The translations under genes were made by a program, and so were the position numbers. Source: Verrucomicrobiota bacterium (GTDB lineage: Bacteria > Verrucomicrobiota > Kiritimatiellia > CAIQIC01 > JAGNIJ01). From it: a stretch of DNA of 64,000 nt. Below the pieces are notes generated by a model that did not search any database, was not told the origin of the DNA, and saw nothing but the letters and a program-made list of their open reading frames with translations. The DNA is taken from contig DAISJM010000002.1 in assembly GCA_036821485.1 (NCBI GenBank), positions 3,771 to 67,770 of the forward strand, in the 5' to 3' direction. Shown here one piece after another: positions 4,941 through 48,350 of the stretch (position 1 is its first letter; each line of letters begins with the position of its first letter).

Positions 4941-5228
4941 TTACCCGAAGGACGGAGCTGTGGCAGTCGTCCACAGGAATCCGCCTGATGGATTGATGCA
5001 TGAGAAGTAGATGAGGAAGGACCGCAGGAGGCTGACATCGGTGATGGCCATGTACTCATCCAAGTTCCCCGCCGCATCGTAGGAACAGAGGACCTTTGAC
5101 TCACCGCCGTAGTCGGCCTGCACCAACCGGTATTGAGCGTCGTAGCTATACTTGACCGTTGTCCCCGCCTCCGCGGCAAGAACACAACCTAGCAGCACGA
5201 TCCCCACTAACCACCAACGCTTGTTCAT
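4941..5228 (-). pseudogene. signal-peptide plus YD-repeat N-terminal fragment (RHS/YD family gene remnant)
   Basis: MNKRWWLVGIVLLGCVLAAEA (signal peptide) followed by two YD repeats (YSYDAQYRL..., SYDAAGNL), then unrelated low-complexity sequence and a stop after about 95 aa. Far too short for an intact YD-repeat protein. The upstream in-frame extension to 5360 is unlikely to be coding. Confidence 0.5.
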
Positions 5229-5310
5229 GAACCCCCCTTCGCAAGCTTCATGCTTCTCTTTTTTTTGCAGGCTAACTTCGCCTATTCGACATCCAAGGAC
5301 CGCCCCCGCA

Positions 5311-5883
5311 CTAGAGAGGGATGCAAAAGGGTATGAAGTGCCGGTACTTCTTTTCTTCAAACTTCAACGTCTTCTTCTCCCCCCAACATGACAGCTCTAC
5401 CTCAAGTCTCCCGTCCCGGACTACACCACCCTCAAGCCTCACTGACAATATTGTGCCGCGGAAGATCTCTGTCTCTTGAACGGATGACGGAGCGACAGCA
5501 GCCCCATCAATCTTTTCAAAGATGACATCTCCCAGCCCACCGGAATGCACAAGCTTGAGGATATTCGTTTCGTGAGGGGGATACAGAGCCTTATCGGTCA
5601 TCGGCACAATCGGTATGAAAGCAGGCCCCACCCAACTCATACGATCAGCCAGAACAGGATACACCACAACCTCATTGGTTGTCCCCATAACGAATTCATA
5701 TAGAGGAGGCTTATACTGCCCAAATGAGGGCTCTCTGCTGCGAGTATGCCACCCCCCTTTTTCCACCACATGAAAGCCATCCTCTAAATGCACAAGCGTC
5801 AGGTAATCGGCCGAATCCACGACAGAACACCCGCCCACCAAGCAAACCAGTACACAGGCCGCAGCCAGAACGAGTCTATTCAT
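5311..5883 (-). CDS. hypothetical lipoprotein
   Basis: MNRLVLAAACVLVCLVGGCS has a lipobox LVGGC; about 190 aa with no recognisable domain. The apparent upstream extension in the ORF track is encoded by the transposon inverted repeat and is rejected. Confidence 0.6.
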   Translation of the reverse strand: MNRLVLAAACVLVCLVGGCSVVDSADYLTLVHLEDGFHVVEKGGWHTRSREPSFGQYKPPLYEFVMGTTNEVVVYPVLADRMSWVGPAFIPIVPMTDKALYPPHETNILKLVHSGGLGDVIFEKIDGAAVAPSSVQETEIFRGTILSVRLEGGVVRDGRLEVELSCWGEKKTLKFEEKKYRHFIPFCIPL

Positions 5884-5905
5884 CACCACCACCCTGACAC
5901 CCTTT

Positions 5906-5931
5906 GGGGTCAGACCTACAAATAACAAATA
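5906..5931. repeat. left terminal inverted repeat of the transposase element
   Basis: Exact reverse complement of 6988-7013. Confidence 0.85.
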
Positions 5932-5934
5932 GGC

Positions 5935-6945
5935 TCATTCCAGCACCCCGAGGCTTCTCTCCGCCTGCTCCAACTTCCGCCGCAGCCCCTTGTCTGTCTT
6001 GACCAGCCGATCCGTTCGCCTCACCTGCCAACTGACCGCCGATCCCCACTGGAGCCCCAGCTCCCGCGCCACCTCCCGTTGCGTCAACCCGCTATGCCGA
6101 CTCAGCAACAGCGCCGCCAGCCCCCGCGCGCCCTGCCCCCTGCTCCGACAGCCAATCTCCTCGACAGGCACCCCCATCACCTGCGACACCGTCTTCAGGA
6201 CTCTCCTCGGCGCCACCGCCACCACCTGCCTTCGAAACGTCGTATCCTCCGGCCTCTTCAACCTGCCAACCTGTTCCGCCCCCACCTCCCGCATTCTCTC
6301 CATGAATCCCTCTCCGCCGATCCCCTCACTCGCCCCCTTCACCAACTTCTGGACTTCCTCGTCCGTCTTTGCCAACCCCTGTTCCACATACTTCCGGTAC
6401 GCCGAAGGCCTCCGCCCTTTCTGCCCCGCCAACTGTGCCAGCACCGGCCCCATCTCCAATCCCTCAATCGCCCTTGCCCTCCCCGCATAGGCCGGGTAGC
6501 TGCTCCAGCGATAGCCCCGCAAATACCGAACCTGCTCTTTTAGCGGCCTTTTCTCGATCTCCCCGACATGCACCGGGTTCAAGTGTACATACCGGCTCAG
6601 TTTCAGCAGGTACTCATCCCCCTCCACCGGCTTTCCCCCAAACCGACCCTGCAACAGATGTCCCACCCGCCGGTGCCTCTTGTTGAAGTACATCGTATAC
6701 GCCGTCATCAGCGACTGCATGAATCGGCTGATATTGGCCCCCGGTGTCTCCACCAGCAGATGCACGTGATTGTTCATCAGGCAGTACAGGTACAGCCTCA
6801 CCCCGTGCTTCCCTGCCTGCTCGCTCAACTGATCTAGGAACCGCCCACGATCCCCGTCATCCCGAAAGATATCCTGCCTCCCGTTCCCCCGAACGGTCAC
6901 GTGGTAGATCGCCCCCTCGAACACAATCCTTAGTTTTCTCGCCAT
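5935..6945 (-). CDS. IS200-like HUH (Y1) transposase fused to a DnaA C-terminal-like HTH domain
   Basis: 336 aa; the HUH motif is NHVHLLV; the catalytic Tyr helix AYTMYFNKRHRRVGHLLQGRF fits the IS200/RayT pattern; the C-terminal ~90 aa (SQVMGVPVEEIGCRSRGQGARGLAALLLSRHSGLTQREVARELG) resembles DnaA domain IV. Confidence 0.85.
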   Translation of the reverse strand: MARKLRIVFEGAIYHVTVRGNGRQDIFRDDGDRGRFLDQLSEQAGKHGVRLYLYCLMNNHVHLLVETPGANISRFMQSLMTAYTMYFNKRHRRVGHLLQGRFGGKPVEGDEYLLKLSRYVHLNPVHVGEIEKRPLKEQVRYLRGYRWSSYPAYAGRARAIEGLEMGPVLAQLAGQKGRRPSAYRKYVEQGLAKTDEEVQKLVKGASEGIGGEGFMERMREVGAEQVGRLKRPEDTTFRRQVVAVAPRRVLKTVSQVMGVPVEEIGCRSRGQGARGLAALLLSRHSGLTQREVARELGLQWGSAVSWQVRRTDRLVKTDKGLRRKLEQAERSLGVLE

Positions 6946-6986
6946 ACCCGCCTTCCTACCACCCCTTGCCCTCTCCGTCCACCCTC

Positions 6987-7466
6987 TTATTTGTTATTTG
7001 TAGGTCTGACCCCGGAAAGATCGGAAAGATTGCTTGCAGATCTACTCCCAAAGCTACTGAGTATCAGGCGCCCAAGGGAGGTCATCGTGGCCCACCCAAC
7101 ACCAAGAATGAAAATATTGCTGACAGCAGCATTCACGTAATCGAACACGTTGAAGTTCACAAAATCCTTGCTGTTCACCGGATTGGCAAGGAGAGCTAGA
7201 AGGCATAGCGGAGGAAAGCCCAGGAAAAGAACAAGCCCTGTTACGGCACCGACCGCGCGCTGTGCGAATGATGCAACTCTGAGAGAACAGAATATGAACA
7301 CGAGTCCCGACAACGCGGCGAAGTACAGGAAAACGGGATATCCTTCGGCAAAGAAGAACCCGATCGCGTTCTCTCTTTGGCTTTGCAGCGGGATGCTGGC
7401 AACGACGGAGATAGACGCCACACAACACACAATCGCAGAACCCAGTCTTAGCCTTTCAGTACTCAT
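6987..7466 (-). CDS. small 4-TM membrane protein, candidate RHS immunity protein; 3' end modified by the transposon insertion
   Basis: Starts 10 nt after the stop of the RHS C-terminal gene on the same strand. Four predicted TM helices. The final codons GVRPTNNK and the stop are encoded by the right inverted repeat. Confidence 0.55.
   Translation of the reverse strand: MSTERLRLGSAIVCCVASISVVASIPLQSQRENAIGFFFAEGYPVFLYFAALSGLVFIFCSLRVASFAQRAVGAVTGLVLFLGFPPLCLLALLANPVNSKDFVNFNVFDYVNAAVSNIFILGVGWATMTSLGRLILSSFGSRSASNLSDLSGVRPTNNK
6988..7013. repeat. right terminal inverted repeat of the transposase element
   Basis: Exact reverse complement of 5906-5931; it overlaps the last 8 codons and stop of the upstream 4-TM ORF. 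Confidence 0.85.
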
Positions 7467-7475
7467 CTCAGCACT

Positions 7476-8903
7476 CTATGGGAAGGAAGCCCGAATCACG
7501 GTGTTGGCGCTCGAAGTTGAGGATACGGAACCCCTCGATCCACGGGCTCCAATCGATATTGCTCCGCCATTCACTGGCGCGAGAAACACGCTGCGGGATA
7601 TTTCATTGGGGGTCGTCTGGGAGTCATGAACAATGGGCACCCCCGCAGCACGCAGACCGTCCGCCACAAGAGAACCACAGGTATACTCACTGCCATCAGA
7701 GGACTGAATACCGACTATCGCACCATAGTCATACCCGCCGAAGGTGCCTCCAACAAGAGCCTGCCCCGCAAATTTAAGAAGCCCAGCTTCATCAACCGCG
7801 CCGTTTGGTCGCATGATTTGGAATGTCTTCCCGTCCAGACTGTCCGGGGCATCAATAACAACACCGTCGCCAGGACGAGCCGTTAGAATACCATCCTGCA
7901 CCCTAATGCCAACATGCCCATACACATCTCCGGGAGTATTTGCATCTGCAGTGAAAATAGCGATGATCCACTGAATGATATTGTTATCGACATAGAGATA
8001 CACATCCCCAACCCGTCCCTGCGCCCAACTCTCCCCCCACCCCCACGGGTCGATGAAGTTCACCGGATCGCCGTGGCAGTAGGCGTACAGATTCAACCCG
8101 CCCGGAAGGCCAATCGGATCTTTCGTGAGCCACCGTCTCAGGTCCGCCGCGTAGTACCGCGCTTTGATGTAGTACAGCGACCCACCCTCGTGATACGCCC
8201 CATACCCGCCCCCGAACGTATACGGCGTCTCCACCCCGCCTGCCTGATCCAGCACTTCTCCGTACGGCGAATAGGCGTACTCCGCCACCACCGCCCCGTT
8301 GGTGTCCGTCAGCGCCAGCGTCGACCCCTGCTCATCCGCGTGGAAGTAGTACACCGCTCCGTTTGTTTCCACCTGCGCCAGCAGCCCCCGCGCGCCCCAG
8401 ATGTAGTACCGCACCGGCAGCCCGTTCGTGTCCGCCTCCATCAGCACGTTGTGCAGCGCCGCGCCACGATCCAGCACGAAATGCCGGGTGCCTTGCAGGG
8501 AATGCCGGGTCACCCGATCCCCCAACCCGTCGTATTCATAGGCGCTGGCCGTTCCCTCGTTCACCACGTTCGTCATCCGATTGTCGTGGTCGTATCCCAT
8601 CGCCAGCCCCATCCCGTTGGAGACCAGGTTCCCATTCGGATCGAAGTAGAAGGCGTTGGTCGTCCACGCCTCATCACCCGGGGCCGCAACACGAAGCGTC
8701 TGCGAAAGCCGATCGGCCCCGTCGAAGGTCATGCACTCCACCTTCGGCTGCAGGTCCCCCACCCGCCCCGCCACGATCTCCTCTTCCATCTTAAGCCCCA
8801 GCCCGTCCCGCGTAAATACCCGTTCCAGAAATGCCGTGGCACCGAGAATATAGGAGAATCCCGCCAGCCTCTGTGTATCGTCCCATTCAAACACCCCGGC
8901 CAC
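7476..8903 (-). CDS. 5'-truncated RHS/YD-repeat protein (orphan C-terminal fragment) with a variable C-terminal toxin domain, possibly a permuted papain-fold (LRAT / NlpC-P60-like) enzyme
   Basis: Multiple YD repeats (YEYDGLGDRV, YYFHADEQGSTLALTD, YAYSPYGEV). RHS core end RYYAADLRRWLTKDPIGLPGGLNLYAYCHGDPVNFIDPWG (DPxGL-type). A ~190-aa C-terminal extension with GDVYGHVGIRVQDG (like the LRAT His box) and YTCGSLV (like the NlpC/P60 YDCSGLV Cys box). The ORF opens with GTG directly after an in-frame TAA, so the N-terminal ~1000 aa of a normal RHS protein are missing. Confidence 0.8.
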   Translation of the reverse strand: MAGVFEWDDTQRLAGFSYILGATAFLERVFTRDGLGLKMEEEIVAGRVGDLQPKVECMTFDGADRLSQTLRVAAPGDEAWTTNAFYFDPNGNLVSNGMGLAMGYDHDNRMTNVVNEGTASAYEYDGLGDRVTRHSLQGTRHFVLDRGAALHNVLMEADTNGLPVRYYIWGARGLLAQVETNGAVYYFHADEQGSTLALTDTNGAVVAEYAYSPYGEVLDQAGGVETPYTFGGGYGAYHEGGSLYYIKARYYAADLRRWLTKDPIGLPGGLNLYAYCHGDPVNFIDPWGWGESWAQGRVGDVYLYVDNNIIQWIIAIFTADANTPGDVYGHVGIRVQDGILTARPGDGVVIDAPDSLDGKTFQIMRPNGAVDEAGLLKFAGQALVGGTFGGYDYGAIVGIQSSDGSEYTCGSLVADGLRAAGVPIVHDSQTTPNEISRSVFLAPVNGGAISIGARGSRGSVSSTSSANTVIRASFP

Positions 8904-47356: not shown

Positions 47357-48350
47357 CGTGACACGCTATTGGGCATATGGGTTGGGCGCTGTTGTGATGA
47401 TACTGGCCGCCGGGTGCCAATCCCCGCAGGAAATCCGCCCGTTTACAGACGCGCAGCTTCGCGGCTTCTATTCGCGCGCCAAGGACCCGCGCCAATTCTG
47501 GCTTACGCCGTACGAATCGAATGACGGCCCCGTGTATTCGGGCGCCAACCGGCTGCACCCGGAAAAGATGGCCCAGTTCCAGTTCCGCGGCAACAGCCGT
47601 TCCACAGCGCCGATCATCCCCTTCAAGGCCGAACGGCCGGAAAATGAATTCCTGGCCCTGGTCGACACGTCCTCCAAGGAAAGCTGGCTGGACCTCAACA
47701 CGGCACGGGGAGTCGGCGTGACCCCCATCGCACCGCCGCCGGCAAGAGTCATACCGGAACATGTTCAGGAAACTATCACCGGCTACGCCACGGTGGCGAG
47801 GCAGCTTCTCCTGGATAAGTGCCCCATCGAGATGGCGCTGCTATTCACCCGCGGCGCAACCGGCCCGCTCGGCGCGCTCGCCCGCGGCGAGGAACACCCC
47901 AGGCCCGGCGCCGTGTTCGGCTACGACCTCCTGCGCCAGTTTGCCTTCGTCCAATTCGATTTTGCCCTGCGAACGATTACCTTCTCGTCCAGCATCGACT
48001 ACAACCCTGAACCGGAAGTACTGGTCGCCAGCGTCCCCTTCTTTCTGCAGGACGGGGCACTGGCAGTGCGGGGAACCGTGGAGGGTGAGCCGACCACGAT
48101 CCTGCTCGACACGGCGGGCGATTTTGAACTGGCCCTGAAAGAACCCCGGTTGGACCCCGTGCGAAGGCTCGGGCTGGGCAGCCTTGTGATCATGAACGTC
48201 AACCCGGCCATCCACCAGGATTTCAATCTGGGCCTGACGGACTACCCGCGTGTCGGACGGAAACTGCTCGCGCGATACAGGATCACCATTTCCAATAAGC
48301 AGCGCAGGATATTCTTCGAACGACCAAGCCGCCTGCCAAAGGCGAAGTGA
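47357..48350 (+). CDS. lipoprotein with two retropepsin/pepsin-like aspartic protease motifs
   Basis: Likely GTG start giving MTRYWAYGLGAVVMILAAGC (lipobox); the alternative ATG is at 47396. Motifs ALVDTSS and LLDTAGD in separate halves. Confidence 0.6.

Follow-up and report, generated by a model that had tools for sequence, protein, structure and literature searches.

The names TIRYT, for a gene, and TIRtron, for the unit that carries it, were introduced by Di Nocera, De Gregorio & Rocco (2013, BMC Genomics 14:522), who catalogued 26 examples, counted solo copies of the inverted repeats (TIRs) and described GGGGWSAS as the outer TIR motif; movement of the unit was not demonstrated. Such units combine a RAYT-like Y1/HUH gene with long TIRs a short distance from it, and occur in the PVC group and other phyla without REPs. 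Quentin et al. (2018, BMC Genomics 19:475) placed the TIRYTs in TnpA_REP subclass 2.1, with a DnaA_C-like tail and no REPs, and found class 2 genes to be low in copy number, with little identity between copies. They also thought it doubtful that the TIRs are what the C-terminal domain recognises, because GGGGWSAS is unlike a DnaA box. The literature searched contained no biochemistry of a TIRYT.

The RAYTs, exemplified by E. coli TnpA_REP (4ER8), are single-copy genes for proteins of about 165 aa, which lie between inverted copies of their cognate repeat, recognise REP hairpins that bear a GTAG tag, in single-stranded form, and are accompanied by hundreds of dispersed REPs. Elements of the IS200/IS605 type, such as IS608 and ISDra2, encode transposases of about 130-155 aa and have asymmetric ends, subterminal hairpins, no TIRs and a fixed tetra- or pentanucleotide target on the left. 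This nuclease family is known only for single-stranded hairpins, and the puzzle posed by the element considered here is that its ends are simple inverted repeats and its protein has a domain of duplex-binding type.

The element lies in the window, a 64-kb stretch of DNA from a member of the Kiritimatiellia. Judged by its sequence, it is likely to be a TIRtron, i.e. a compact autonomous IS-like element, with a TIRYT of TnpA_REP subclass 2.1 as its gene, the subclass being assigned by published signatures. Taken jointly, TIRtron identity and mobility are propositions that we hold with high confidence. In itself the element adds an ordinary further member to a class that already has a name; compared with the TIRtrons of Di Nocera et al., the host and the TIR sequence are new, and the present analysis adds identical ends in several flanks, the lack of a target-site duplication, paired 7-nt repeats and one-sided flank duplications.

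Anatomy of the element

The unit spans 5906-7013 (1108 bp) of the window and is enclosed by perfect inverted repeats of 26 nt, GGGGTCAGACCTACAAATAACAAATA, at 5906-5931 and 6988-7013. One intact ORF of 336 aa, 5935-6945(-), lies between them, leaving 42 nt between TIR and ATG and 3 nt between the stop codon and the other TIR. The first-pass annotation had described a single-ORF element with exact 26-bp repeats, as is indeed the case. The features are as follows.

5906-7013, minus strand: probable complete TIRtron, transposase on the minus strand; homology to the L003, L004, L089 and L091 copies is bounded at both positions
6988-7013, minus strand: left (upstream) TIR, from which the 4-TM ORF also takes the codons for GVRPTNNK and the TA of its TAA stop
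5906-5931, plus strand: right (downstream) TIR, past the transposase stop codon
7006-7013, minus strand: terminal motif GGGGTCAG, left end (published consensus GGGGWSAS; GGGTCA-type anchor in the family)
5906-5913, plus strand: terminal motif GGGGTCAG, right end, on the same basis
6988-7001, minus strand: inner half of the left TIR, with the 7-nt repeat ACAAATA twice in tandem, read from sequence; the C-terminal domain is proposed to bind here
5918-5931, plus strand: two tandem ACAAATA repeats in the right TIR, read from sequence
5935-6945, minus strand: intact gene of 336 aa, probably a TIRYT, with more than 4196 homologues of full length
6583-6912, minus strand: aa 12-121, nuclease domain of HUH/Y1 type containing H60/H62 and Y119/N123/P124 (Pfam Y1_Tnp, invariant columns, 4ER8 fold match)
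5938-6225, minus strand: about aa 241-336, helix-turn-helix domain at the C-terminus, similar to DnaA domain IV (profile match, 1J1V and 3PVP fold matches)
7014-7031, minus strand: 9-nt tandem duplication of host flank against the left TIR (AATCTTTCC GATCTTTCC, minus strand), encoding NLSDLS of the 4-TM ORF tail
7033-7049, minus strand: GGGAGTAGATCTGCAAG, the outermost 17 nt of an older, degenerate sequence resembling a TIR, common to the L004/L090 alleles
6987-7466, minus strand: 4-TM ORF (putative Rhs immunity protein), its 3' end running into the element

Each TIR begins on its outer side with GGGGTCAG, which matches the GGGGWSAS of the published TIRtrons; both are composed of a terminal motif conserved in the family, (R)GGGTCAG, and the two tandem 7-nt repeats. 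The TIR also contains GTAG, and CTAC/GTAG adjoins a short palindrome, GGTCNGACC. Folded as single-stranded DNA, neither end of the element forms a hairpin better than shuffled sequence does (z -0.8 to +1.3), and allowing up to three mismatches no further copy of GGGGTCAGACCTACAAATAACAAATA occurs in the 64 kb, as was also the case in 100 shuffles (0 matches). A scan of the element for sigma-70 promoters found none.

The transposase

The N-terminal part of the protein matches Pfam Y1_Tnp over residues 12-121 (E 5.7e-14; 52.7 bits against a cutoff of 23). Its HVH motif is H60-V61-H62, within an NHVH HuH signature, and H60, H62 and Y119 are invariant among 26 homologues. The first-pass annotation had recognised HVH correctly and had placed the catalytic tyrosine on a helix ending in GHLLQGRF; that segment is residues 95-102, and the catalytic tyrosine is instead the invariant Y119 in SRYVHLNP, where Y119-V-H-L-N123-P124 are all invariant or nearly so in the alignment of homologues, fitting the class 2 signature Y---NP. 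These signatures, together with a long C-terminal extension resembling Bac_DnaA_C or HTH_23/28 and the lack of REP-like structures nearby, are those of TnpA_REP subclass 2.1/2.1.2.

About 200 aa with a duplex-DNA-binding fold extend beyond the Y1 domain. As a single sequence this part matches Bac_DnaA_C weakly (E 0.02; 15 bits, under the cutoff of 31.5), with weak Pfam matches also to HTH_23 and HTH_24. A single-sequence PDB search with the transposase gave only noise, hence the need for a family profile of 26 sequences, which matches DnaA domain IV of 2HCB/1L8Q with an E value of 7e-4. In the AlphaFold model of the 336-aa protein (pLDDT 83.8), the C-terminal domain superposes on 1J1V with a TM score of 0.88 and an rmsd of 1.4 A over 93 columns, i.e. 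the same fold across the whole 94-residue domain, and on 3PVP with a TMt of 0.85-0.86. The earlier description, in which a HUH/Y1 transposase is joined to a DNA-binding domain resembling DnaA domain IV, is thus borne out. The resemblance is one of fold, whereas identity to DnaA is 10-17%, an AAA+ module is absent, and the box-contacting residues are not conserved, the base-contacting DHTTV of DnaA being replaced by GSAVS. The target is likely to be something other than a DnaA box. The best fold match of the N-terminal domain is E. coli TnpA_REP 4ER8 (E 6.8e-5, TMt 0.73), and it also matches TnpA of IS608 and ISDra2, with which it shares HUH/Y1 catalysis. Among NCBIfam models the best match is REP_Tyr_transpos (60.9 bits, below the equivalog cutoff of 80), and transpos_IS200 scores 19 bits against an equivalog cutoff of 55. 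In comparison with a RAYT the present protein is twice as long and has an extra domain of duplex-binding type, its TIRs are not hairpins, and the element appears to move as a unit.

Copies in other contexts

Homology of the unit to loci L003, L004/L090, L089, L088 and L091-094 begins and stops at the outer ends of the TIRs. The L003 copy adjoins the gene for a giant Laminin_G_3 protein, that of L004/L090 sits inside the Rhs gene, on the upstream side of the same 4-TM gene, and the copies of L089, L088 and L091-094 follow a different Rhs toxin and a 119-aa TM ORF. L003, L089, L088 and L091 have no flank in common with the window past the TIR ends. The 1108-bp unit is found with identical ends in at least four different flanks, and in six copies there is no target-site duplication beyond chance, which on comparison of these sequences indicates that the unit moves as a whole. 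The window and L004 copies have a left flank of 7 nt and a right flank of about 15 nt in common, so local rearrangement instead of transposition could account for this one pair, between which adjacent segments are swapped. The left flanks of the copies differ (TTTCC, TTTCA, CGAAA, GCTCA, CGATC and CGTGC), and no conserved tetra- or pentanucleotide target lies against one end only.

A solo end is present at L091:3953-3978, and decayed ends also exist. Many homologues lie on contigs of 1.1-1.7 kb, the pattern of collapsed repeats; the exact protein occurs at one locus only in this MAG. A pattern for the 22-nt TIR core gave 0 matches in a collection of representative genomes to which the host species does not belong, and 3 matches, 2 of them genuine, in metagenome contigs, whose coverage is partial, as the matches did not include the JGI contig of the window itself. 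The third of these matches, in L007, was rejected as a chance occurrence inside a CTP synthase (pyrG-like) gene. The insertion is present or absent among strains more than 98% identical, and because of this polymorphism it is probably recent, as had been proposed from the window alone. The jumping gene is probably still active.

Ends and flanks across the family

Homologues of the TIRYT protein number more than 4196 at full length, with at least 589 matches in representative genomes of PVC bacteria, Nitrospirota, Desulfobacterota, Acidobacteriota and others. In 59 relatives from many phyla the same bounded architecture recurs in unrelated neighbourhoods, with a common end layout of RGGGTCA and often two tandem 7-nt repeats; the GGGTCA anchor or a close variant stands at both ends of the 59 loci. 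By a strict test (shuffle P<=0.05) only 25 of the 59 have a period-7 tandem pair, and the sequence of the 7-nt repeat varies from element to element. The palindromic core GGTCNGACC was considered as a cleavage site and rejected as a general model, since most relatives, e.g. GGGGTCAAATC, are without the palindrome.

In these 59 elements the distribution of candidate target-site duplications equals that of the permuted control, and the pooled ends display only a weak A-T-Y bias. What does distinguish the ends is one-sided tandem duplication of the adjacent flank, spanning the junction, at 28 of 117 ends (24%) against 47 of 2340 control windows (2%). The right edges of these duplications are scattered over 0-8 nt and define no single nick position.

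Alternative explanations

The first-pass annotation assigned the element to the REPtrons, in which a domesticated single-copy RAYT lies between two inverted REP hairpins and mobilises many dispersed REP/REPIN copies rather than itself. The best NCBIfam model and the best structural match, the hairpin-bound E. coli TnpA_REP, both lean this way, as do CTAC/GTAG beside the palindrome and the one solo end in L091; however, the family model is matched below its equivalog cutoff, the ends fold no better than shuffles, the 64 kb hold no further repeats and the metagenome collection only two genuine core matches, the unit occurs complete with its gene in several contexts, and the family conserves a sequence, GGGTCA, and not a stem or hairpin. 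The assignment is therefore given up as improbable. A classical IS200/IS605 insertion sequence, moving by single-strand 'peel and paste' with subterminal hairpins and a flanking tetranucleotide target, would account for the Y1_Tnp domain, the resemblance to IS608 and ISDra2 TnpA and the lack of a target-site duplication. We regard it as very improbable, and the first-pass annotation had set it aside too: the TIRs are perfect and subterminal hairpins absent, the tyrosine motif is Y---NP (class 2) and not of the class 1 type, the transpos_IS200 score falls far under its cutoff, the 200-aa extension is additional, and no tetranucleotide is conserved against one end only.

It might also be argued that the gene is domesticated and immobile, its contexts arising by recombination of a variable Rhs locus and its repeats being regulatory sites bound by its own helix-turn-helix. 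Rhs toxin/immunity loci make up three of the four contexts, adjacent segments have changed places between the window and L004, which have short flanks in common, and class 2 genes are generally low-copy. Against this stand the L003, L089, L088 and L091 copies, which have no common flank past the TIR ends, the bounded architecture of 59 loci in many phyla and unrelated neighbourhoods, and the existence of decayed and solo ends, and to our minds such a gene is the least probable of these explanations. A mobile TIRtron remains the preferred interpretation.

A possible mechanism of transposition

For such a TIRtron the following steps can be proposed, although as a set we would give them somewhat less than an even chance. 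The C-terminal domain would bind the element-specific pair of 7-nt repeats as duplex DNA at each end and thereby place the HUH domain at GGGGTCA, the conserved end motif; Y119 would nick there and form a 5'-phosphotyrosine link. Strand transfer to a new site would then follow by HUH chemistry, with no duplication on opposite sides, while repeated nicking or a tightly bound end protein might generate the one-sided tandem duplications of the adjacent flank. With respect to the doubt of Quentin et al., the inner TIR half here carries an element-specific 7-nt tandem pair, a better candidate site than GGGGWSAS.

More tentatively, and with rather more doubt than belief, TIRtrons may constitute a very large, overlooked and active IS family that docks on duplex DNA through a DnaA domain IV-type module reading 7-nt pairs, rather than on single-stranded hairpins, and cuts at GGGGTCA, with one-sided duplications as a new footprint. 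The exact mobile ends without target-site duplication, the terminal motif with its variable 7-nt pairs and the one-sided flank duplications offer starting points for biochemistry. As a separate observation, the low copy number of class 2 genes fits domestication better than active transposition, and to that extent speaks against both the mechanism and mobility.

The Rhs locus and the insertion junction

The 4-TM ORF, which has no Pfam or NCBIfam match, directly follows an Rhs C-terminal ORF (7476-8903; Rhs_assc_core, E 1.2e-21). It ends in GVRPTNNK, and its last eight codons and TAA stop are supplied by the TIR, as the first-pass annotation had seen; the element thus gives a putative Rhs immunity protein a new C-terminus. 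The same annotation had reconstructed the native gene by removal of the element. Deleting 5906-7013 does give the reading ...NLSDLS-KGCQGGGDE-TAG, overlapping ATGAATAG at the lipoprotein gene, but as the ancestral state this is unsupported. No empty site was found, a search of metagenome contigs with the pattern GGGAGTAGATCTGCAAG-N15-45-GGTGGTGATGAATAG giving 0 matches. The NLSDLS codons are themselves the 9-nt tandem duplication against the TIR, of the type enriched at family ends. Homologues of the 4-TM protein form a single cluster, the L004/L090-type allele, and these, the only other alleles, differ: they end in ...GSRSASNK* inside the older degenerate TIR-like sequence, and downstream lies an Rhs fragment, not the lipoprotein gene. 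A search for homologues of the lipoprotein returned only itself. The 3' remnant in L004 was considered as a simple deletion of the present copy and rejected, the remnant being about 20-25% diverged and the adjacent gene about 99% identical. Because the element recurs in Rhs toxin/immunity loci, it may contribute to the shuffling of such cassettes.

Classification of the element

The element at 5906-7013 (minus strand, 1108 bp) belongs to the TIRtron/TIRYT class. Di Nocera et al. 2013 (PMC3733652) described RAYT-like genes that carry long flanking inverted repeats (TIRs) in place of REPs, coined the terms TIRYTs for the proteins and TIRtrons for the units, and found the motif GGGGWSAS to be common to many TIRs. 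Quentin et al. 2018 (PMC6006769) assigned 20 of 26 of these examples to TnpA_REP subclass 2.1, which has a C-terminal Bac_DnaA_C/HTH_23/HTH_28-like domain and no REP-like structures nearby, and noted that GGGGWSAS is unlike the DnaA box. A full-text literature search found the terms in these two papers only, with no newer literature on TIRtron mechanism, so the kind of element is already named and known, but experimentally unstudied. The features of the locus are as follows.

4941-5360, minus: ORF with a signal peptide and then YD-type repeats (MNKRWWLVGIVLLGC...YSYDAQYRLV...SYDAAGNL), downstream of the lipoprotein gene
5311-5886, minus: lipoprotein ORF, 191 aa, with a good lipoprotein signal at its start (MNRLVLAAACVLVCLVGGC)
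5906-5931 and 6988-7013: perfect 26-nt inverted repeat, GGGGTCAGACCTACAAATAACAAATA
5935-6945, minus: transposase ORF, 336 aa, the sole ORF occupying the inter-repeat interval
6987-7466, minus: upstream 4-TM ORF, reading through the repeat to a C-terminus of GVRPTNNK-TAA

The first-pass annotation was right about what is present and partly right about what it means. The perfect repeats are as it described, and the repeat does supply the GVRPTNNK-TAA end of the 4-TM ORF. The transposase ORF begins 42 nt in from one repeat, its stop lies 3 nt from the other, and the repeat begins GGGGTCAG (cf. the published GGGGWSAS). The annotation had further called the repeats hairpin-capable and the element a REPtron. 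Both ends, taken on both strands as single-stranded DNA, fold no better than shuffles (z -0.8 to +1.3), and the 64-kb window holds no further copy of the 26-mer at up to 3 mismatches (0 in 100 shuffles) and no additional copy of the repeat core, so this identity is rejected. IS200/IS605 elements are without TIRs and depend on subterminal hairpins, and membership of that family therefore fails as well. At the protein level REP_Tyr_transpos is the nearest NCBIfam model, yet it scores 60.9 bits against a cutoff of 80, and the IS200 equivalog falls far under its cutoff (19 bits against 55).

Transposase protein

The pairing of a transposase with a DnaA-like domain, as first annotated, is borne out. 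Pfam Y1_Tnp matches residues 12-121 of the 336-aa protein (E 5.7e-14), and among 26 aligned homologues (46-89% identity) H60 and H62 (NHVHLL) and Y119, N123 and P124 (SRYVHLNP) never vary. Since Y---NP is the signature of all class 2 (TnpA_REP-type) Y1 proteins (Quentin et al. 2018, PMC6006769), Y119, which lies on a predicted helix at 111-121, is the predicted catalytic tyrosine, rather than one near GHLLQGRF (residues 95-102) as previously proposed.

The C-terminus gives weak HTH matches in a single-sequence search (Bac_DnaA_C, E 0.02), and a family profile matches DnaA domain IV from Aquifex (2HCB/1L8Q, E 7e-4) and Bacillus (8BTG, E 4.5e-3). In an AlphaFold model (mean pLDDT 83.8) the N-terminal part resembles E. 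coli TnpA_REP (4ER8; E 6.8e-5, TMt 0.73), and the C-terminal part resembles both E. coli DnaA domain IV on a DnaA box (1J1V; TMt 0.88, rmsd 1.4 Å, 93 columns) and the M. tuberculosis DnaA-DBD (3PVP; TMt 0.85-0.86). The DHTTV stretch of DnaA, which contains base-contacting residues in the 1J1V complex, is GSAVS in the transposase family, so this domain would not be expected to target a DnaA box.

Movement as a whole unit

The exact protein occurs at one locus, in the Kiritimatiellia MAG GCA_964523715.1 (JGI 3300010355). Close relatives of the element, with 80-97% nucleotide identity, occupy other contexts.

L003: adjoins a 3098-aa Laminin_G_3/LTD protein
L004 and L090: within the Rhs gene, with the window's 4-TM gene downstream
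L088 and L089: short contigs
L091-L094: preceded by another YD-repeat toxin and a membrane ORF of 119 aa

At all of these loci similarity to the window is bounded by the G/C runs on the outer side of the TIRs, the upstream end differs among copies in its first base (GGGG, AGGG, CGGG), and no direct repeats flank the element at any copy. Sequence comparison thus provides evidence for an element that moves as a whole unit without target-site duplication (TSD). A second, unrelated ORF in L004 also enters the TIR and ends GVRPTNNK*, which shows that the GVRPTNNK tail is element-encoded. At L091 (3953-4010; also L092-L094) a perfect 26-mer stands alone: the element sequence breaks off within a few more bases, and an end of another TIRtron type (GGGGTCAGCCCCTGACAATTGATAATCAG) lies directly against it.

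Of the four contexts that can be told apart, three are loci of an Rhs/YD-repeat toxin with a small, immunity-like membrane protein (window 7476-8903 and 6987-7466; L004, L090, L091-L094); the fourth, L003, is the one beside the Laminin_G_3/LTD protein.

Terminal layout and one-sided flank duplications

Protein searching returned more than 4196 significant homologues, mostly full-length (about 340 aa) and many of them on contigs of 1.1-1.7 kb, and at least 589 relatives turned up when a single genome per species was scanned. An inverted-repeat search around the gene at 80 fetched loci gave 59 elements bearing a GGGTCA anchor, exact or slightly varied, at each end (1.01-1.43 kb, median 1.10 kb). 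The base preceding this anchor is G at 84 and A at 31 of 118 ends, and no TSD beyond chance was seen across the 59. Two 7-nt repeats in tandem make up the inner TIR half in 25/59 (shuffle P<=0.05); their period is always 7 and their sequence is element-specific, ACAAATA in the window and TTGATAT, TTAAGAT, CGAATAA or TTGACAT in others. This layout would fit a division of labour, with the conserved domain carrying out catalysis at the conserved terminus and the variable DNA-binding domain giving specificity through the variable subterminal pair.

Tandem duplication of the host flank immediately next to the TIR (period 8-20 nt, <=1 mismatch) marks 28 of 117 ends (24%; the L003-L089 loci and the window), against 47/2340 (2%) for random windows of the same loci under the same test. 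Examples are listed below.

L003: AGCGAAAGGGGTCA, two copies
L020: AGGCACAGGGGTCA, two copies
L031: ACAGTCCGGGGTCA, two copies
Window, 7014-7031, minus: AATCTTTCC GATCTTTCC

Some duplicated ends have three or four copies, the duplicated unit takes in at least 5 terminal TIR bases in 11 cases, and several units, those of L003, L020 and L031 among them, stop exactly after GGGGTCA. Because both copies lie adjacent on one side of the element, these are not TSDs. We read them as probable scars at active ends, left either by repeated nicking and repair or, alternatively, by replication slippage against bound protein. The evidence for whole-unit mobility without TSD, the 7-nt pairs and the one-sided duplications go beyond the descriptions of Di Nocera and Quentin, and provide entry points for testing how this unstudied system transposes.

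Pattern scans for this repeat can yield coding false positives: at L007:5304-5325 an unrelated low-GC organism has a chance match to the 22-nt TIR core within its CTP synthase (pyrG-like) gene. The TIR reverse complement reads FVICRSD. A single GGGGTCACGCC motif at 47715-47725 (minus) fits the family terminus pattern; the window has 3 matches to this pattern where 0.7 would be expected, which is not significant. On a high-GC metagenome contig (L005:1160-1350), a classical GTAG-tagged REP hairpin cluster (e.g. GTAGCGGCGGATATCGCATCCGCC) directly adjoins a decayed end of a related TIRtron; a second end starts 381 bp further on.

History of the locus

Removal of the element had been proposed to restore a native junction between the 4-TM ORF and the lipoprotein gene; the arithmetic is correct, and the history is unsupported. 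The only other 4-TM alleles, in L004 and L090 (99% and 95% nucleotide identity), end GSRSASNK*. The stretch encoding this end, GGGAGTAGATCTGCAAGTAACAAATAG, aligns colinearly and in the same frame with the TIR-encoded GVRPTNNK* and is identical to the TIR at 20/26 positions (26/32 including flanks). It is an older, degenerate end at the same place. Past it these alleles lead into a fragment of an Rhs core whose C-terminal domain is different; the lipoprotein gene does not follow them. Of the degenerate remnant the window retains only the outer 17 nt (7033-7049), after which come the duplicated 9-mers and then the intact element, which makes 'NLSDLS' unlikely as native sequence. No empty site was found, nor any lipoprotein homologue outside the window's contig. 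The insertion is polymorphic among nearly identical strains, so its description as recent is reasonable.

The lipoprotein gene is called with later starts by JGI (66 codons in, 125 aa) and NCBI (82 codons in, 109 aa), and the 4941-5360 ORF resembles an Rhs N-terminus that has been cut short. L004:2926-4519 and window 7485-5891 represent two strain types with opposite orders of the adjacent 4-TM gene and element; the element segment carries 7 nt and about 15 nt of common flank, and 1.4 kb of the Rhs gene is absent from L004. This swap resembles a circular permutation or a rearrangement linked to the element.
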